Sequence record: NC_102605.1
Source of the DNA: a phage
Reading direction: 5' to 3' (one strand)
DNA length: 50,633 nt
Part shown: one piece after another, positions 10,884 to 50,633 of the stretch
How the letters are laid out: the number at the start of each line of letters is the position of its first letter
Position numbering within the stretch: the stretch's first letter is position 1
The notes under the pieces: generated by a model
The model's input: the letters and a program-made list of their open reading frames with translations, nothing else
Told to the model about the DNA's origin: nothing
Databases searched by the model: none
Program-made: the position numbers and the translations under genes

Positions 10884-10904
10884 TTTAACAAAAAGTGCTA
10901 TTTA
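10884..10904 (-). promoter_or_regulatory. Dyad-motif cassette (minus orientation)
   Basis: Reverse complement aaatagcactttttgttaaaa; hairpin gcccc/ggggc; cataat; motif TAG is the stop of the upstream gene. Confidence 0.6.
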
Positions 10905-25758: not shown

Positions 25759-25769
25759 AGCTTTTAACC

Positions 25770-25790
25770 TTTTGTGCTATTTAAACGTGC
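25770..25790 (-). promoter_or_regulatory. Dyad-motif variant (aaatagcac-aaaag-gttaaaa) abutting the J start codon
   Basis: Motif halves present, but no room for a -10 before the ATG. Confidence 0.35.
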
Positions 25791-35612: not shown

Positions 35613-35655
35613 AATATTTCCCCTCATAGAAAAGCCGTCATAATAACGGCTTTAA

Positions 35656-35675
35656 TATAGCATTTTTTGTTAAAC
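35656..35675 (+). promoter_or_regulatory. Orphan dyad motif in plus orientation inside the minus-strand late operon
   Basis: atagcattttttgttaaa with no plus-strand gene downstream; a hairpin with tattatg loop lies between it and the capsid RBS. Confidence 0.4.
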
Positions 35676-35701
35676 GTTCAAGTGTTTTTTGTGTTAGCAC
35701 G

Positions 35702-43945: not shown

Positions 43946-44004
43946 TTTCTAAATCTCCGTGTTTCGCTTCAATGAGGACACTTTAACAAATGCCCTCGCG
44001 GAAG

Positions 44005-44025
44005 TTTTAACAAAAAGTGCTATTT
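44005..44025 (-). promoter_or_regulatory. Dyad-motif cassette (minus orientation)
   Basis: Reverse complement aaatagcactttttgttaaaa; motif TAG is the stop of the upstream gene. Confidence 0.55.
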
Positions 44026-44517
44026 TTGCAGGCCAATCAGCGCATCAGCCAACGCTCTTACAACCTTTGCATGAGTCACTATATTTTCACCTTCCGGCAC
44101 TCGCAGCACTTCACGCAGTTGCTCTAACGCTTTGACGTATTCGTTAGGCTCTGAGTTAATCAACGCATTGAATCGCGCATTCTCAATTACAGAATCAACT
44201 GATTTTGCAATTACGCGATCTTGAATTCCAACCGTCATTTCACCGCGCATTGATTTGAAGATATCGCCACCAGGCGAACATGAATTTCTAACCTGCTCCG
44301 CTACTATATCGCGAATTCGTTCACGCTCTGCTAATGCGCTTGCTTCATCTGCGATCCGCTTTGCGTTGCTTAGGTGCTCGCTTTCGAAAAGAGTTTTATC
44401 AAGCCAAACTCTAACGCCATTATCAGCAACAACCAGGTAAAGAGTATCTATGCTATTCAAAACGGTATAGTCACGGCCTTTTGTCAGGTAGTTATAAAAA
44501 TCATTTTTAGCTTTCAT
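44020..44517 (-). CDS. Hypothetical protein (165 aa)
   Basis: ORF track. Confidence 0.55.
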   Translation of the reverse strand: MKAKNDFYNYLTKGRDYTVLNSIDTLYLVVADNGVRVWLDKTLFESEHLSNAKRIADEASALAERERIRDIVAEQVRNSCSPGGDIFKSMRGEMTVGIQDRVIAKSVDSVIENARFNALINSEPNEYVKALEQLREVLRVPEGENIVTHAKVVRALADALIGLQK

Positions 44518-44529
44518 ATTTTATTCTCC

Positions 44530-44775
44530 TTACCAACAAGAAATTTCTTCTTCTGCGAAATAGTCATAGTCAAATTGACACCAATCCTTCAAAGGCGTAT
44601 CAATCCACTTTGCGAAATCTTCCAGAATTTCGGAGTTGTAGTTATCCGCAATGCAGCGACCCCAGGCGCGAGCATTCTTGTAACCGTACATACTAAACGT
44701 GTAAGGCGTTTTAGCTGAATCACCCCATCTTTTAGCAATCTTTGCGAATGCGCGTACCAGCATTTTTCTATTCAT
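44530..44775 (-). CDS. Hypothetical protein (~81 aa)
   Basis: Track 44530..44847 starts at TTG; first in-frame ATG (MNRKMLV) taken. Confidence 0.4.
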   Translation of the reverse strand: MNRKMLVRAFAKIAKRWGDSAKTPYTFSMYGYKNARAWGRCIADNYNSEILEDFAKWIDTPLKDWCQFDYDYFAEEEISCW

Positions 44776-44902
44776 TTGATTTGTACCCCACGTAATAACC
44801 AGCCATACCCAAAACAGTGCCACCAAAAGGAACACAATCAGCGACAATCAAAATATTGCCAATTATGACAAGTAGGATAAATATTAACCACATCTTAATC
44901 AT
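44768..44902 (-). CDS. Membrane micropeptide (~44 aa), not in ORF track
   Basis: Hydrophobic ORF whose ATG overlaps the stop of the upstream ORF. Confidence 0.3.
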   Translation of the reverse strand: MIKMWLIFILLVIIGNILIVADCVPFGGTVLGMAGYYVGYKSNE

Positions 44903-45059
44903 CTTTTTCAACCTTAACGGGAGTGTTAAAAACATACGTTTTGAGCGTATGGCCTTTTGAATCCTTCGTTATGATGTTCACCGTGTCGCCGTCGCGCCGT
45001 TCTTCTAGTTCAACGCCAGGCACATAAAGCAACCCTTGCGGCGAATGAATCCAGAACAT
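44895..45059 (-). CDS. Hypothetical small protein (~54 aa), not in ORF track
   Basis: ATG after GGAGG RBS overlapping the stop of 45062..45259. Confidence 0.35.
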   Translation of the reverse strand: MFWIHSPQGLLYVPGVELEERRDGDTVNIITKDSKGHTLKTYVFNTPVKVEKDD

Positions 45060-45061
45060 TT

Positions 45062-45259
45062 TTATTCCTCCACGATCTCAAACTCTGCAAGTACGAAAGA
45101 GCCAACGTTTACAGATAATCCGCCTTTACCGTTTAAGAAGAATTGACCGCCGTACTCATGCGTTACAGTTGGGCTAAACCCGTTTACACCTTCTTCCATG
45201 TGGTAAATCGCGCCAACTGTCAGATTCAGGGTGTTTGATTTTGTGCATTTAATTTTCAT
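45062..45259 (-). CDS. Hypothetical protein (65 aa)
   Basis: ORF track; GAGGAA RBS; cassette upstream. Confidence 0.5.
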   Translation of the reverse strand: MKIKCTKSNTLNLTVGAIYHMEEGVNGFSPTVTHEYGGQFFLNGKGGLSVNVGSFVLAEFEIVEE

Positions 45260-45326
45260 CGATTATTCCTCTGATTGGCCTTGCTTCTCTTGAATAAGGC
45301 CACTATAACAAATGGCCTTGCGCAAG

Positions 45327-45347
45327 TTTTAGCAATTCGTGCTATTT
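45327..45347 (-). promoter_or_regulatory. Dyad-motif cassette (palindromic variant, minus orientation)
   Basis: Reverse complement aaatagcacgaattgctaaaa; hairpin ggcc/ggcc with tatagt-like loop. Confidence 0.55.
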
Positions 45348-45917
45348 AAGGTGATCGCTAATGATTTCGCTAACTGTAATCATCGGCTTTTCATTGGTTA
45401 GTAAGTAATCGTGCTCGCTATATCCGTTTTTCTGGTAATAGGGATTGATTCGAATGTAGTTGCGGCTATCACCTGCAAACGTGAACCCGTCGCGATGCAA
45501 GCGGCATAGCTTCACTTCATTACCAGCATTGATTAGAGCGATAATTTCATCTGGAAAACCACCATCAGTGCAAACAACAGGAGCATCACACTCTTTTACT
45601 TTCTGGTTAAACCTTACGCCGAAATAATCCTTGCCGAATTTAGGTTTGATTACATCCTCGCTAATCCATATCATGAACTCACGCGGTGACATACCCATCA
45701 GGAATGTTTGCGGCCTTTCTTTCTGCTCTCTGTCATCATAAGCCAACATGAAGCGCTGATAGTTCTCTTTACCCAGGATAGCCAATGCAATGTCAAACAT
45801 TGGCTCTTTAAAGCTAATAATGCGGCATTGCTCACCAGGCGAATAGAAAGAAATCATCTTGCCGATTGTGTCTTTACCAGCGCCAGGCGGCGCATTGAGG
45901 ATTATAATTTTAGCCAT
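45342..45917 (-). CDS. Deoxynucleoside monophosphate kinase-like P-loop kinase
   Basis: N-terminal P-loop NAPPGAGKDT, resembling phage dNMP kinases (GxxxSGKDT). Confidence 0.55.
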   Translation of the reverse strand: MAKIIILNAPPGAGKDTIGKMISFYSPGEQCRIISFKEPMFDIALAILGKENYQRFMLAYDDREQKERPQTFLMGMSPREFMIWISEDVIKPKFGKDYFGVRFNQKVKECDAPVVCTDGGFPDEIIALINAGNEVKLCRLHRDGFTFAGDSRNYIRINPYYQKNGYSEHDYLLTNEKPMITVSEIISDHLK

Positions 45918-46089
45918 CTTTATTCACCTTAAAATATTGAACGGTTAATGTTTCTTCGATCTGAGTCCATCCGTGATTTCTTGACTCAATACTAACATCA
46001 TTTAATGCTGCCTCGCCGGACTCAAGAGCATCAGCAAGCGCTCGCAGATAGTTGATCGTCTTTGTCGTTTCGATCTTGTTGTCAAGCAT
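45910..46089 (-). CDS. Hypothetical small protein (~59 aa)
   Basis: Internal ATG of track ORF 45910..46152, chosen to abut the upstream gene. Confidence 0.35.
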   Translation of the reverse strand: MLDNKIETTKTINYLRALADALESGEAALNDVSIESRNHGWTQIEETLTVQYFKVNKDG

Positions 46090-46370
46090 CATAAGAAAAT
46101 AAACCCCACTGCAAAAATTAACATGATTGTGATTAATGCCACATTTGCGCAAAAATCACCGCGTTTATAAAAAGGCTTTTCGTTCTTTTTTTCTACAAGA
46201 ATATACTTCCCATTTTCCATGCCATGATAAAAACATTCATTTGTTAATGATGTTGGTATTGCATCAGAAACAAAACTTGAATCATTGACAAGGATTCTGC
46301 CATCATCCATTACAAAATAATAAACCTGCTTACCATTAACAAACATATCAACAGCTCTATAAACTTTCAT
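46089..46370 (-). CDS. Hypothetical protein with C-terminal TMD (93 aa)
   Basis: ORF track; AAGGAG RBS; cassette upstream. Confidence 0.5.
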   Translation of the reverse strand: MKVYRAVDMFVNGKQVYYFVMDDGRILVNDSSFVSDAIPTSLTNECFYHGMENGKYILVEKKNEKPFYKRGDFCANVALITIMLIFAVGFIFL

Positions 46371-46427
46371 TCGTCATTCTCCTTGCTTGTCTCGACAAGG
46401 CACACTTTATCAAATGTGCCTTAGCAA

Positions 46428-46448
46428 GTTTTAGCAAAAAGTGCTATT
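46428..46448 (-). promoter_or_regulatory. Dyad-motif cassette (minus orientation)
   Basis: Reverse complement of the motif; hairpin aaggcaca/tgtgcctt. Confidence 0.55.
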
Positions 46449-46636
46449 TAATAAGGCAATTCATCAGCAAGCCGCTTTATATGATCCGCTAATTCTCTTG
46501 CGCTTTTCTTGTCTAATATGGCGCGAAACTGCAATTTGGTGTCGTCGTCATATTTACAATCAATCCAGACTGATTCACCGCGACTGTAAACAAGAATATT
46601 GTCACCATGCCGATCCTGAATATTCTTTGAATGCAT
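46448..46636 (-). CDS. Hypothetical protein (62 aa)
   Basis: ORF track; CAGGAGGGA RBS. Confidence 0.5.
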   Translation of the reverse strand: MHSKNIQDRHGDNILVYSRGESVWIDCKYDDDTKLQFRAILDKKSARELADHIKRLADELPY

Positions 46637-46728
46637 TATCTATCCCTCCTGTTGATATCCAATAGACAAATCACAACCGCCACGATAAAAGCACCAATTC
46701 CCCAGGCAAGCGCCATTGGATCATAGTT

Positions 46729-46905
46729 TTCAATCACAGATAGCGATCCTCTACAAAATCCTCTGTTTCGAAATCAATGCTACGTAAATCACCATCATCA
46801 TCAATGACAACATAGCATTCATAACCAAATGTGTGATCCATTCCGATTGTTGCATTGTACATGTTGCCAACCGTAAAACCTGGATATTCACCTATGCATT
46901 TTAGT
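46729..46905 (-). CDS. Hypothetical small acidic protein (~58 aa), not in ORF track
   Basis: ATG directly after the stop of the HAD phosphatase gene. Confidence 0.3.
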
Positions 46906-46906
46906 T

Positions 46907-47449
46907 TCATAACTTTTCAACTCCGTGAGACTTTAAGTGATCGTGTAACTGCTCTCCGTAGTCAATGACCTGGTAAACCGTCAAGCCCAGGCCGCGCAGG
47001 TGTGCAATAACGTTTGGTGAGTCATCCCAACATGCGACAATGCGATCAAGTCCTATAGTCCGTAAAACTTCCTCTTTGATTACGGTATCTTTCCGGTTAT
47101 CGCTGGCGCGGCGCATAATCAACCAATCGAAAGAAACGCCGTTTTCAGCTAACCATGCGCGTGTTTCCGCCTCTACTTCGTCGCTACGGCCTGTTAGGAT
47201 GATAACCAGGTATCCGGCATCAAACATGGCGTTGCACACGGCAATGTTATTGCTGAATGGTAAATCATCCTTAGCCGCGCGGTTAAACTCACTCCAGCTT
47301 TCAGTAAGGTGCAAGTCAACAGTTGGCAACAGGTGCAAGCGGTGCTCACCATTTGACAATGTGCCGTCTAGGTCGAAAATAACGAAACGCTGTTTTGTTG
47401 CAATGTAGTGATTAGCGTATTCCTTCCCCCACAATTCGATCTTAAACAT
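46907..47449 (-). CDS. HAD-superfamily phosphatase, possible 5'-deoxynucleotidase
   Basis: N-terminal DxDGT motif (FDLDGTL) and HAD-like downstream motifs. Confidence 0.6.
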   Translation of the reverse strand: MFKIELWGKEYANHYIATKQRFVIFDLDGTLSNGEHRLHLLPTVDLHLTESWSEFNRAAKDDLPFSNNIAVCNAMFDAGYLVIILTGRSDEVEAETRAWLAENGVSFDWLIMRRASDNRKDTVIKEEVLRTIGLDRIVACWDDSPNVIAHLRGLGLTVYQVIDYGEQLHDHLKSHGVEKL

Positions 47450-47450
47450 C

Positions 47451-47558
47451 CATTACCCCACAAATTCGATGACAATGTAAGCGATGCCAGCCAGCACAAC
47501 GGTAGCGAGCACAATCATAGAGCCGTATTTAAGAAACTGCTTAATTGATTCTTTTGAC
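47451..47558 (-). CDS. Membrane micropeptide (~35 aa), not in ORF track
   Basis: ATG after AGAGAGGA RBS; single predicted TMD. Confidence 0.3.
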
Positions 47559-47618
47559 ATTTTTCTATCCTCTCTTGTTGGTTGATGCGGTCATTGTACC
47601 AATCAGCACACATGACCG

Positions 47619-47638
47619 CTTAACATTTTGTGCTATTA
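47619..47638 (-). promoter_or_regulatory. Dyad-motif variant (aatagcac-aaaat-gttaa), minus orientation
   Basis: Same arms with an A-rich spacer; upstream of the micropeptide ORF. Confidence 0.4.
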
Positions 47639-47938
47639 CTTGCGCTTAACTTTCTGTGCAAACTTCATGCAGCGCTTGAAATCAACATCACTGGCTTTTG
47701 TAACGTGGCTTTGAATCATTGTAACCTTTGTTCCGCTTCCGATATCTCGCCAGTGCTCATGGCCTCCGGTATCACCAAATTCACTGCAAAGCTCACCATG
47801 CAAACTAAATCCATTTACACCACATTTGTAAATCCAAAACGGATTAATAAGATCATCTTTGTTGACGTGCAAGAATGCGTAAGTGTCACGAATTGATGTG
47901 TGAGTGAGTGCATAAACCGCGTTACGTGCTAATTTCAT
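47636..47938 (-). CDS. Hypothetical protein (~100 aa)
   Basis: Track 47636..47980; internal ATG after AGAGGA. Confidence 0.5.
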   Translation of the reverse strand: MKLARNAVYALTHTSIRDTYAFLHVNKDDLINPFWIYKCGVNGFSLHGELCSEFGDTGGHEHWRDIGSGTKVTMIQSHVTKASDVDFKRCMKFAQKVKRK

Positions 47939-47994
47939 TATCCGATCCTCTTTGTTTTGTGTGGGGTCACTATACCGCAACCCCGAAATTTTGT

Positions 47995-48014
47995 TTTAGC
48001 AAAAAGTGCTATTA
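47995..48014 (-). promoter_or_regulatory. Dyad-motif cassette (minus orientation)
   Basis: Reverse complement aatagcactttttgctaaaa; hairpin ggggt/acccc with tatagt in the loop. Confidence 0.55.
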
Positions 48015-48015
48015 C

Positions 48016-48192
48016 ATGAACCAGCCCATTAATGCGCCAGCAGGTGCAACGAATATCCCTATTGCGCGAATGATTAATTCGTTGGTTGTGATATCGCCAA
48101 ACATTTCAACGATATTCATGATCCAGCCAGCGATTGCAGCAATCCACAAAGAAAAGAAAGCGATTCCAGCGACACCATATAATTTCATGTTA
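48016..48192 (-). CDS. Small two-TMD membrane protein (~58 aa), not in ORF track
   Basis: ATG after CAGGAGAAG RBS; two hydrophobic segments. Confidence 0.35.
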
Positions 48193-48245
48193 ACTTCTCC
48201 TGTTTGTTTTGTATTGGCTTACTATACCGCAAGCCCAAAATTCTG

Positions 48246-48266
48246 TTTTAGCAATTCGTGCTGTTT
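48246..48266 (-). promoter_or_regulatory. Dyad-motif cassette (palindromic variant, minus orientation)
   Basis: Reverse complement aaacagcacgaattgctaaaa. Confidence 0.5.
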
Positions 48267-48814
48267 TTGATTTTTACGTTAGTGCCGCGCTTAATGTTGA
48301 TTTCAGCGCCGTAATTATTGCCGTTCTTGTAACCTCCAGAATAACCGGAAAGCAAGCAAATAACATCGTCGTGTACTTCAATGCGGCGCGGTTTAAATTT
48401 CAACTCGTCCCATTCGCCATTTTCACGCTGAACACCTAACAGCGTTGCGCCAACTGGCATATTTTCAACCTTGCAAATGTAATCGTAATCTTTAGCACCT
48501 ACTGACGCAGTAAACACAGCACCGTTTAAATTGACATGGCCAGGACTGATATTTAAATATTTCATCGCATCTAACAGATCGTTATCCTCGCGTTTTTCTT
48601 CTTTGCCACAAGTAGCCATTTCATAATACCCATCTTTGCCAGGGATATTATCTGGATTTTTATTGTTGTGCTTGTTAACGAAATACTCAAGTTTAAATCC
48701 GGTTATTCCACCACCTTCCCACTCTCCGCGCGTTTTACTGGTGAAAGTAACTTGCATGTCAGGCTGATAGAATTTAAAGGTGATCGGGAAGTTGATTTTT
48801 TCGATGATTAACAT
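48248..48814 (-). CDS. Hypothetical protein (~188 aa)
   Basis: Track 48248..48850; internal ATG after AAGGAG. Confidence 0.55.
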   Translation of the reverse strand: MLIIEKINFPITFKFYQPDMQVTFTSKTRGEWEGGGITGFKLEYFVNKHNNKNPDNIPGKDGYYEMATCGKEEKREDNDLLDAMKYLNISPGHVNLNGAVFTASVGAKDYDYICKVENMPVGATLLGVQRENGEWDELKFKPRRIEVHDDVICLLSGYSGGYKNGNNYGAEINIKRGTNVKIKNSTNC

Positions 48815-48864
48815 TGTTGATTCTCCTTTGCTTAACTCAACGAGGGACACTATAACAAATGCCC

Positions 48865-48885
48865 CTGATTTAGTTTTAGCAATTC
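48865..48885 (-). promoter_or_regulatory. Dyad-motif cassette (palindromic variant, minus orientation)
   Basis: Reverse complement aatagcacgaattgctaaaa. Confidence 0.5.
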
Positions 48886-48966
48886 GTGCTATTGATCATT
48901 TTCTTTATTCTGTGGCGGTAGAATTGCATTACGTGCTCATTGTGCCAACTGCTCATTTGTTGCTCC

Positions 48967-49227
48967 TTACTTAACAATGCGGCATTCACCATAGCTGAAC
49001 GGTAAAAACGTGTCACTATCCATGCAATCAGGAATTGCACACATGCGGCCTTTTACCTTGTCATATCCAGCCGCAACCAGGGCATCAAGAGGAACGTCAA
49101 CCATTCCGACTTCCACGCCATAATCAAGGCAATTATCAATTCGGATTGGGAATGTTAAATGTTTCATTCCGTCATAGGTTCCGTCATTCAGAATTTCAAC
49201 AGTTACGCGGGTTAGTTCGAATTGCAT
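48967..49227 (-). CDS. Hypothetical Cys-containing protein (86 aa)
   Basis: ORF track; cassette upstream. Confidence 0.5.
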   Translation of the reverse strand: MQFELTRVTVEILNDGTYDGMKHLTFPIRIDNCLDYGVEVGMVDVPLDALVAAGYDKVKGRMCAIPDCMDSDTFLPFSYGECRIVK

Positions 49228-49283
49228 TTTATTTTCTCCGTTGTGTTTCGATGGGGTAATTATGCCAAACTACCCAGATTCAG

Positions 49284-49304
49284 TTTTAACAAAAAGTGCT
49301 ATTT
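49284..49304 (-). promoter_or_regulatory. Dyad-motif cassette (minus orientation)
   Basis: Reverse complement aaatagcactttttgttaaaa. Confidence 0.55.
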
Positions 49305-49471
49305 ACTACACCAAATCACCATTGCCACGGTGAAAGCACCCATCAGGACAATCAGCCACTCAATCATCAAACGCCCCCAACAATATCAAGCCAAGAACAA
49401 TAAGCGCCACGCCAGGATGACCGATTGCAACGCACCACATTGCAGCGATAAATGCGAATGTTTTCATTACA
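49300..49471 (-). CDS. Two overlapping hydrophobic micropeptide ORFs (~35 aa and ~22 aa), not in ORF track
   Basis: First ATG after AGAGGTGA RBS; both predicted single-TMD peptides. Confidence 0.25.
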
Positions 49472-49694
49472 TCACCTCTCTGAACCTGGCTACACTCTCA
49501 ATGTCAAAGAATCGCGAGCCATCACCAAAGCGAATGCCCTCAAATGCGATCCATGCATCATTTATGCTTAGTTCGCTAACCAATTCATCTTGCATAATTA
49601 ACACCTCGCCAGTATTACCGCGCTCGGCATCATAGCAAGATCCGACAATAAAGCATGACGTATCAAGTGAGAAAGTGCATTGTAGTTTCATCAC
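49467..49694 (-). CDS. Hypothetical protein (75 aa)
   Basis: ORF track. Confidence 0.5.
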   Translation of the reverse strand: MMKLQCTFSLDTSCFIVGSCYDAERGNTGEVLIMQDELVSELSINDAWIAFEGIRFGDGSRFFDIESVARFREVM

Positions 49695-50121: not shown

Positions 50122-50595
50122 TTATTCATCCTCATTGTTGACAAAGTTGATTTTCACAAGTGCATGAAGCTCTTGCATTACTTTTGCTACGGTTGCGTAT
50201 TCTTCCGGCGCATAGTTTGCCAGGTTTGGCGATAGCGTCATAAAGCGCTCTGCTGCCTTGTTCACTGCCTGGCGCTTGTGCCGTTCAACGTCAGCCTTGC
50301 TATAAACCGTTTTACGTTTCTCATGAGTGAGTGTGATCTTGAATACTTCCATGCCGAAAAGGTTACTTTCGTCATCGTCGCACATTGTCTTTTTGATCTT
50401 GATAGTGCCAACCATTTTTACTTCCGGCACTCGTGACATAGTGGTGCGCACGTATGAAGCCGGATTATCAGATGATTTCTTTCCGGCTAATTCAGTAGCC
50501 AGGTAGCCAGTCGGGATCACGATTTCGGTTTTCTCACCACTGGCGAGCGCCTTTGCTGCCTCGCGTAGTTTTTCGGTAAAGCTCATGTTTTCCAT
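50122..50595 (-). CDS. Hypothetical protein (~157 aa), first gene of the leftward array driven by the 105-140 promoter
   Basis: Track 50122..50628; ATG after AGGAGA RBS (MENMSF...); 5' end duplicated at 1-77. Confidence 0.55.
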   Translation of the reverse strand: MENMSFTEKLREAAKALASGEKTEIVIPTGYLATELAGKKSSDNPASYVRTTMSRVPEVKMVGTIKIKKTMCDDDESNLFGMEVFKITLTHEKRKTVYSKADVERHKRQAVNKAAERFMTLSPNLANYAPEEYATVAKVMQELHALVKINFVNNEDE

Positions 50596-50633
50596 ATGGT
50601 TTCTCCTGATTGGTTTTGATGTGTGCATTATGC
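50519..50633. repeat. Second copy of the terminal direct repeat (identical to 1-115)
   Basis: Exact identity with 1-115. Confidence 0.9.

Follow-up and report, generated by a model that had tools for sequence, protein, structure and literature searches.

Why would a phage set very small hydrophobic genes around and between two enzymes that seem to belong to nucleotide metabolism? The question is raised by positions 44,530 to 49,471 of phage record NC_102605.1, part of a stretch of 50,633 nucleotides (nt) that we analysed as a whole and call the window. The original prediction placed here a P-loop protein resembling deoxynucleoside monophosphate (dNMP) kinases and a HAD-type phosphatase, interleaved with at least six short hydrophobic open reading frames (ORFs), and proposed the encoded peptides as candidates for host membrane-targeting or superinfection-exclusion factors. 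Taking all parts together, we consider it likely that this is the accessory, presumably early, gene array in the left arm of a Tlsvirus phage, made up of short operons that follow one another on the minus strand and are read leftward. The feature is real but already known as annotation, with counterparts annotated in TLS, LL5, Stevie and other phages.

Genomic setting

A megablast search with positions 44400–49600 gave matches in 81 phage records, headed by the Tlsvirus phages LL5, Sazh, TLS, Stevie and Punny. The top Tlsvirus records are 90–93% identical to the query and each covers only 60–76% of it, so that the region shows a mosaic pattern. As judged from its sequence, the window is a nearly complete genome of a TLS/T1-like siphovirus (Drexlerviridae, Tempevirinae, Tlsvirus), and no tRNA genes were found in its 50.6 kb. 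GC skew and the ORF map put every gene between about 43.4 and 50.6 kb on the minus strand, where all features described below lie unless marked otherwise.

For comparison, 72 related loci were collected from IMG/VR with the HAD protein as query, and TLS and Stevie were added to give 74 loci. Together with the larger genes, the micro-ORFs and the promoter modules, each of about 75 nt, leave almost no base of the region unassigned. Escherichia phage TLS (AY308796, gp03–gp19) has the same gene order, strand and repeat-headed units; its gp09 (pnkP) corresponds to the HAD protein (93%), gp14 (dmk) to the kinase and gp05 to the Stp-like peptide discussed below. TLS differs in having gp11, with two transmembrane domains (TMDs), where the present phage has 58-aa, 33-aa transmembrane and 62-aa genes (aa, amino acids), and in lacking the other 58-aa gene of the present phage, the one with two TMDs, which is found in Sazh, Punny and phSE-2.

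Hydrophobic micro-ORFs

All six predicted micro-ORFs are present on the minus strand, at coordinates that were off by a few bases at most. Their maximum Kyte-Doolittle hydropathy over 17 residues (KD17) ranges from 2.05 to 2.97, compared with at most 1.54 in the soluble neighbours. Hydrophobic stretches of 17 or more residues were thus confirmed by calculation, while membrane spanning itself stays a prediction. The coding strand of 44530–49471 contains seven ORFs of 20–70 aa with such hydrophobicity, six of which are the gap-filling micro-ORFs and one of which is nested in a larger gene; on the opposite strand there are three equally hydrophobic small ORFs, all overlapping genes or promoter modules. 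The good ribosome-binding sites that had been claimed for the set hold for four members, in which Shine-Dalgarno (SD)-like sequences are strong (AGGAG at 48012; GAGGA at 47453) or good (GAGGA at 46636; GGTGA at 49360), but the signals are weak at 44768 (AAGG) and at 49299 (GGGGG, plus translational coupling).

Five of the micro-ORFs are intact in relatives, with an uncorrected ratio of non-synonymous to synonymous difference proportions (pN/pS) of 0.09–0.3, comparable to that of neighbouring genes, but the sixth, a 22-aa ORF, makes a weak case on this count. Full-length or near-full-length PHROG matches were obtained for three of them (phrog_17726, 9.5e-26; phrog_6006, 5.6e-20; phrog_22353, 5.4e-24), and no PHROG match was found for the 44-, 33- and 22-aa ORFs. 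Searches of Pfam, NCBIfam and PDB sequences with the micro-peptides returned nothing above noise. The micro-ORFs are not overlooked genes, as several are annotated in the GenBank records of relatives and three belong to PHROG families. Annotation pipelines do miss some, as in the records of FSL SP-126, PHB07, YSP2 and Henu4_2, where the 35-aa and 33-aa ORFs were left unannotated. We regard the five as genuine genes, to all appearances under purifying selection and shuffled among related phages. The array would then contain five, possibly six, genes for peptides of 22–58 aa with one or two predicted transmembrane segments, plus a 93-aa protein with a predicted tail anchor.

The 35-aa membrane peptide encoded at 49360..49467 (MKTFAFIAAMWCVAIGHPGVALIVLGLILLGAFDD; phrog_22353; KD17 2.29) is the last well-supported gene of the leftmost operon. 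Its ORF is intact in 22 of 74 loci, and 8 distinct close variants give a pS of ~0.40 against a pN of ~0.13. A T1-type version exists in 56 phage records, T1 itself included; hhalign aligned the Tls-type and T1-type groups with a probability of 80.6% (E 1.3e-5), and the T1-type peptide is a probable homologue.

The 22-aa hydrophobic ORF (49299..49367; MIEWLIVLMGAFTVAMVIWCSK) begins with an ATG that overlaps the upstream stop codon (GATGATTGA) and is itself closed inside a repeat. It is intact in YSP2, UTK0007 and PHB07, where its C-terminal half differs yet stays hydrophobic, while U136B and KKP3830 open a different hydrophobic ORF of 37 aa from the same coupled ATG. As a gene, this possible sixth member is weakly supported. 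Located after the 35-aa gene, the coupled start GATGAnTnA (49360–49370) opens alternative hydrophobic ORFs, of 22 aa or 37 aa depending on the relative, and a coding sequence annotated in U136B on the opposite strand over the 37-aa stretch looks like a mis-call. An RNA hairpin or terminator was also considered at 49299–49370, where a scan flagged a weak stem, but folding z-scores of 0.1–0.6 gave it no support.

A single-gene unit between two promoter modules encodes the 58-aa protein with two predicted transmembrane segments (48012..48188; phrog_6006; pN/pS 0.21). Phage records with this protein number 43, and among them are podophages of Vibrio, Aeromonas and Mesorhizobium, whose homologues are ~40% identical and sit in DNA-metabolism modules, not in lysis modules. 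A word-indexed homologue search gave close relatives only, and an exhaustive profile search was needed to recover 534 representatives of 50%-identity clusters at E<=1e-3, all of ~50–105 aa and the top ones matching end to end. The family, which has members in early or DNA-metabolism modules of unrelated phages, shares the motif GW.MN...R.IG..AP.G..GW, with conserved residues G21, W22, N25, R41, G44, P49, G51 and G55. A 31-member alignment had nothing above noise in Pfam, NCBIfam and PDB, and the family, for which there is no Pfam model, is a candidate new domain of unknown function (DUF).

The first cistron of the HAD operon is the 35-aa ORF at 47453..47560 (MSKESIKQFLKYGSMIVLATVVLAGIAYIVIEFVG; phrog_17726), predicted to encode a single-pass membrane peptide and ending 3 nt ahead of the HAD start codon. 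It is intact in 10 loci and occurs at 80–97% identity in 43 GenBank Tlsvirus records, with 62 synonymous versus 18 non-synonymous differences (pN/pS 0.09). Its product is the counterpart of TLS gp08 (91% identity), which on the basis of DeepTMHMM is annotated as “putative membrane protein, 1 TMD”.

Evidence is thinner for the remaining two ORFs, because few substitutions are available. The 33-aa ORF (46636..46737; MIENYDPMALAWGIGAFIVAVVICLLDINRRDR; KD17 2.74), another predicted single-pass membrane peptide, starts with GTG and is found in 15 phage records at 82–94% identity, with a pN/pS of 0.29 from few changes. In YSP2 it has an ATG start and directly follows pnkP with a 17-nt overlap, without being annotated. 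A match under the pnkP annotation of YSP2/Henu4_2 raised the idea of a HAD protein anchored in the membrane by fusion with this peptide, and it was rejected, the peptide being in a separate frame with the 17-nt overlap. The 44-aa peptide (44768..44902; MIKMWLIFILLVIIGNILIVADCVPFGGTVLGMAGYYVGYKSNE), with an ATG start and two predicted transmembrane segments, occurs in 6 phage records at 91–100% identity (pN/pS 0.28, again from few changes) and is the counterpart of TLS gp17 (95.5%), annotated as “putative membrane protein, 2 TMD, DeepTMHMM”.

HAD phosphatase and P-loop kinase

The HAD-type phosphatase (46907..47449) is present as predicted, as a 180-aa protein with the motif FDLDGT, and its superfamily is borne out by a match to PF25109 (HAD_PNKP; 4.6e-19, 69.4 bits with a cutoff of 27.6). 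The putative catalytic motifs are D26-x-D28-x-T30 and W-D142-D143, and D26-L-D28-G-T30 aligns with the nucleophile motif (DxDxT) of T4 Pnkp. The best PDB sequence matches are Pnkp1 (4xrp, 1.8e-8) and T4 Pnkp (5uj0, 1ltq), the latter over residues 203–297 of 301 only, and the match to phrog_505 is likewise restricted to positions 155–290 of 295. No N-terminal P-loop 5'-kinase domain or Walker A motif was found in the 180-aa protein. As only phosphatase halves were aligned and no Walker motif is present, the protein is predicted to be a stand-alone Pnkp-type 3'-phosphatase domain. It shares with T4 Pnkp (PDB 1LTQ) and Capnocytophaga Pnkp1 (4XRP) the HAD phosphatase domain with the DxDxT nucleophile and the DD motif, but unlike T4 Pnkp it corresponds only to the C-terminal half, without the N-terminal 5'-kinase domain, and the partner RNA ligase of T4 has no counterpart (none is annotated in TLS).

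Tlsvirus records widely label the 46907–47449 protein “polynucleotide kinase” or “3'-phosphatase, 5'-polynucleotide kinase”, and TLS gp09 is said to be able to phosphorylate oligonucleotides (PMC11447400). Neither this activity nor the common label is supported by the sequence, and the kinase half of the annotation appears to be an error passed between records. In one locus (IMGVR_UViG_638275560), the position of the Tlsvirus 35-aa peptide is taken by an ORF of 87 aa, 57 nt upstream of the HAD gene, whose product has a signal of the lipoprotein type (…ALTGC…) and is possibly a Cor/Llp-like exclusion lipoprotein.

The P-loop protein (dmk; 45342..45917; 191 aa, motif PPGAGKDT) also fits what had been proposed. 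It matches phrog_139, “deoxynucleoside monophosphate kinase”, over residues 1–177 (E 1.4e-48), and its Walker A sequence N8-APPGAGKDT-17 is of the GxxxxGK[ST/D] type, with G14, K15, D16 and T17 invariant in 33 homologues. Sequence-level searches of Pfam, NCBIfam and PDB gave no matches. The fold is of the nucleoside monophosphate kinase type and closest to the structure of T4 gp1 (PDB 1DEK), from which the protein differs in having only 14–16% sequence identity and 50 fewer residues. We therefore classify it as a T4 gp1-type kinase of predicted dNMP kinase activity. A split Pnkp, in which the HAD protein and the neighbouring P-loop kinase would heal ends in trans, was rejected, since the kinase has a gp1-like fold and its top matches do not include T4 Pnkp.

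In the present phage, five genes and one promoter-like module separate the two enzymes, in agreement with the prediction that small genes lie between them. The HAD gene is followed by the kinase gene on the same strand in all of the 71 Drexlerviridae loci compared (71/71), with a gap of 3–1992 nt (median 826). HAD and kinase thus form a core duo conserved in Drexlerviridae, and the site between them takes variable insertions. To call them a “nucleotide-metabolism pair” is one possible reading.

The interleaving with membrane peptides is real here but does not come with the enzyme pair as such. In a simple count, hydrophobic small ORFs occur between HAD and dmk on the coding strand in 19 of 71 loci and on the antisense strand in 21 of 71, and the idea of a family-wide enrichment was abandoned. 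A small transmembrane ORF always ahead of HAD was not found either: it is confined to the Tlsvirus clade, and other clades have an unrelated soluble gene or none. Since the intervening genes vary by clade and the strand counts are equal, the interleaving is best described as lineage-specific accessory content.

A 21-nt repeat with a fixed -10 spacing

Seven copies of a 21-nt repeat family (consensus aaATAGCAC-N3/4-TTGYTAAAAC) are found in the region, and an eighth lies just outside (44004–44022). In the whole window the repeat pattern has 22 matches, compared with 1.66 expected by chance, and the copies with a following -10-like hexamer are oriented in the direction of transcription. In each regional copy the repeat is followed by exactly 18 nt and then by the hexamer (TATAGT, CATAAT, TAAAGT or TACAAT); the hexamer in turn precedes a conserved leader, whose consensus CATCGAAACGAAAC is most closely followed at 49301 and 44022, and a GGAG-type SD sequence. 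The seven promoter-like modules are located at 49259..49301 (repeat TAGCACTTTTTGTTAAAAC, CATAAT), 48849..48891, 48221..48263 and 47969..48011 (all TATAGT), 47593..47635 (variant repeat TAGCACAAAATGTTAAGCG, TACAAT), 46404..46446 (TAAAGT) and 45302..45344 (TATAGT), the repeat of the last overlapping the dmk stop codon. Across the window, the combination of repeat, 18 nt and -10-like hexamer is found on the plus strand at 738, 1248, 1897, 2801, 3733, 5148, 5828 and 15321, and on the minus strand at 10900, 12258, 14716, 20463, 44022, 45344, 46446, 47635, 48011, 48263, 48891 and 49301.

The same layout was summarized for 400 distinct copies from the 74 loci plus the window. A -10-like hexamer (A2 and T6) stands at spacer 18 in 363 of them, and TG is present at -15/-14 in 198. 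The 38 nt downstream of the repeat have a mean folding energy of -12.2 kcal/mol versus -5.2 for shuffles, and the hexamer lies within or next to a short GC-rich hairpin. This architecture suggests that the repeat is the upstream half of a promoter without a normal -35 element, and the modules would split the region into mini-operons.

None of the repeat modules was found by a sigma-70 consensus scan, and the TLS authors found only 3 sigma-70 promoters (PMC11447400). The repeat itself has been reported before, as 16 copies of unknown role in Stevie (PMC4319613) and as 18 intergenic copies, ~76 nt upstream of start codons, in TLS, where its function is listed as an open question (PMC11447400). 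We found no description of the fixed -10 spacing in the searched literature, and a search for mapped transcription start sites in Drexlerviridae yielded no usable paper other than those on Stevie and TLS.

The 3' ends of several genes lie within the repeat, so that the regulatory element doubles as coding sequence. For example, the Stp-like gene (...INSTNC*, 48876–48956) and a 188-aa gene (...KNSTNC*, 48248–48262) have a common repeat-encoded C-terminal tail, and the 22-aa ORF stops at the TAG of the repeat (49299–49307). Among the atypical matches, the one at 35658 (35640–35680, plus strand) has no -10 at 18 nt, the one at 25779 (25761–25779, minus strand) has a 13-nt spacer, and the one at 44747 (44729–44747, minus strand) lies inside an 81-aa gene with 3 mismatches and is probably due to chance.

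The Stp-like peptide

A 26-aa Stp-like peptide (MSSWHNEHVMQFYRHRIKKMINSTNC) is encoded at 48876..48956. It matches PF08133 with 35.0 bits (cutoff 25) over residues 1–18 and phrog_6763 at 9.1e-15, and its pN/pS is 0.17. T4 Stp, of the same Pfam family, is an inhibitor of a type IC restriction enzyme and an activator of PrrC. The two peptides share the length of 26 aa, and residues 1–18 are 72% identical to stp genes of T-even phages, but the C-terminal third differs: here the last six codons and the stop (...INSTNC) are encoded by the 21-nt repeat. The Rtp-type Stp homologue keeps a different C-terminus, ...NLKTKGVFGK, which presumably resembles that of T4 Stp. The peptide has a putative anti-restriction function, and it is present in only 16 of 74 loci, in contrast to the HAD protein (74/74). 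A Stp-like gene has been described for Stevie and TLS (PMC4319613).

Other genes of the array

The rest of the array is made up mainly of small genes with PHROG matches. Downstream of the promoter-like module at 49259..49301 lies an 86-aa soluble protein (48967..49227; phrog_13854, 3.6e-57), found in 19 loci, and after the Stp-like gene come the 188-aa protein (48248..48814; phrog_7116, 1.5e-68), whose C-terminus ...NSTNC* is encoded by the next repeat, and a 100-aa protein (47636..47938; phrog_8382, 9e-24). Between HAD and dmk there are a 58-aa acidic soluble protein (46734..46910; phrog_25234, 7.6e-12), a 62-aa soluble protein (46448..46636; phrog_14011, 5.8e-44), the 93-aa protein with a predicted C-terminal transmembrane anchor (46089..46370; phrog_35378, 4.7e-65; KD17 2.98 at residues 77–93) and a 60-aa soluble protein (45910..46092; phrog_16293, 3.2e-41). 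The C-terminal part of the 93-aa protein is homologous to TLS gp12, annotated as “putative membrane protein, 1 TMD”.

After dmk follow a 65-aa protein (45062..45259; phrog_9122, 8.4e-35), a 54-aa protein (44895..45059) present in 13 loci at 93–100% identity and, beyond the 44-aa ORF, an 81-aa soluble protein starting with MNRKML (44530..44775; phrog_8758, 4.7e-38). A 105-aa version of this last gene with a hydrophobic N-terminus (TTG 44847) was rejected, as the homologues in 44 loci start at the MNRKML equivalent and the frame is closed in TLS. At the other end, the first gene of the leftmost operon (50122–50628, minus strand) encodes a DUF7174 protein (PF23796, 7.2e-38), conserved at low identity in 28 loci.

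The best database match of the region, OR786094.1 (76% of the query aligned at 92% identity), bears the label “Streptococcus phage MBBL140” and gives Streptococcus agalactiae as host. It matches in the manner of the enterobacterial Tlsviruses, and its host label is probably wrong or the record a contaminant.

Possible functions of the array

In the reading we prefer, each operon would be headed by the 21-nt repeat, 18 nt, a -10-like hexamer and a conserved leader with its SD sequence. The HAD phosphatase would act on DNA ends or on 3'-dNMPs by stripping off their 3'-phosphates, the kinase would turn 5'-dNMPs into deoxynucleoside diphosphates, and jointly they would salvage nucleotides from degraded host DNA. 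This is the simplest reading for the two enzymes because T1 and TLS degrade host DNA and reuse its nucleotides (PMC11447400), and we infer it as the most likely joint role. The lineage would have acquired the Stp-like peptide and the small membrane-protein genes on either side of these two genes and between them.

The small peptides would enter the host inner membrane soon after infection. Our best guess, which we hold tentatively, is an action on host envelope proteins or on membrane energetics; a role in nucleotide metabolism is less likely. Such action might take the form of exclusion of secondary infection, blocking of membrane-bound defences or permeability changes of the T1 type. In classical T1 work, membrane permeability is said to change early in infection. 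On T1 membrane effects and small early membrane proteins, the literature offered nothing usable beyond the Stevie and TLS papers. Judged by the location of the lysis cassette, the micro-ORFs do not look like holins or antiholins: they have no PHROG lysis matches, and the TLS pinholin, SAR endolysin and u-spanin are gp67–69, ~36 kb from the micro-ORF counterparts.

Several points weigh against this reading of the array. The salvage role of the phosphatase is drawn from context, and a published alternative has it counter PrrC after Stp. The “early” timing of the array is presumed from its position. The membrane peptides show no resemblance to characterised exclusion, holin or toxin families in PHROGs, Pfam, NCBIfam and PDB. 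The pN/pS values come from uncorrected, query-based, non-independent pairs, with few substitutions for the 33-aa and 44-aa ORFs, and give a trend, not a formal test; that of the 22-aa ORF, 0.68 from one comparison, is indistinguishable from a neutral ORF. Moreover, a TTGACA-like -35 is absent 16–18 nt upstream of the -10, where TAAAAC matches in 2/6 bases.

Small early membrane proteins with known roles include T4 Imm and Sp and HK97 gp15. The peptides are as small as these, have one or two predicted transmembrane segments like them and are likewise presumed to be expressed early, and they differ in showing no detectable sequence relationship. In a narrower proposal than ours, raised in the original prediction as superinfection exclusion, the peptides would be superinfection-exclusion or injection-blocking factors, expressed early and placed in the inner membrane to stop later phage DNA from entering, like T4 Imm and HK97 gp15. 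Their variability among relatives is what an arms race would produce, they are small, have one or two transmembrane segments and come from a region presumed to be early, and a promoter module of its own precedes the 58-aa gene. However, no similarity to known exclusion proteins was detected in PHROGs, Pfam or NCBIfam, inspection of the sequences revealed no lipobox ([LVI][ASTVI][GAS]C) of the Cor/Llp type, and the distant 58-aa homologues in the DNA-metabolism modules of unrelated podophages carry no hint of exclusion, so we consider the proposal unlikely.

The Stevie genome paper linked the phosphatase with a Stp/PrrC counter-defence (PMC4319613). In this T4-style scheme, the Stp-like peptide would block a type IC enzyme, PrrC would be released, and the HAD phosphatase would help to repair the cleaved tRNA-Lys. 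The Stp homologue does score above the Pfam threshold, the HAD domain is of the Pnkp type, and the two genes are <1.5 kb apart. However, the HAD protein has no 5'-kinase domain, no RNA ligase is annotated in TLS, and the phosphatase, present in all 74 loci when Stp is in only 16, does not depend on Stp. We find this scheme about as doubtful as the preceding one.

Still less probable is a control or tethering of the phosphatase by the two micro-ORFs next to it, of 35 aa on the upstream and 33 aa on the downstream side, which could work by translational coupling or by anchoring a salvage complex in the membrane. The 3-nt distance between the 35-aa ORF and the HAD start, the weak SD sequence of HAD itself, the linkage of both genes in all 43 Tlsvirus records and the overlap of the 33-aa ORF with the pnkP end in YSP2-type phages would fit such a role, but other Drexlerviridae, whose HAD proteins are 58–75% identical, have unrelated non-hydrophobic upstream genes or none, and the micro-ORFs are never fused in frame to HAD. 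Finally, it is very improbable that some or all micro-ORFs are chance open frames in untranslated spacers: the three antisense hydrophobic ORFs and one nested decoy, the equal strand counts between HAD and dmk in 71 loci and the pN/pS of the 22-aa ORF speak for chance, but five of the six ORFs are intact in relatives with a synonymous excess, include three PHROG matches, have SD-like sequences and fit the gaps exactly, and distant homologues exist.

Implications

If the region is the accessory array described here, little changes: it would be a normal accessory region of a Tlsvirus, with small genes already in public annotation. The 58-aa membrane protein family is large and could be curated. 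It is also a long shot, of greater consequence, that one or more of the peptides is a host shut-off or early permeabilisation factor of T1/TLS or a new exclusion or anti-defence protein and, separately, that the repeat, 18 nt, -10 element and hairpin form a phage-specific promoter class needing a phage factor. The 58-aa family, with two predicted transmembrane segments, its 534 representatives and its own promoter module, is the strongest candidate for a factor acting on the host.

Three questions left open by the TLS authors are how the host is shut off, how its DNA is degraded and what the 21-nt repeat does (PMC11447400). For the repeat, the fixed 18-nt spacing to a -10 element provides a testable answer, and for effects on the host membrane, the small membrane proteins provide a short list of candidates.

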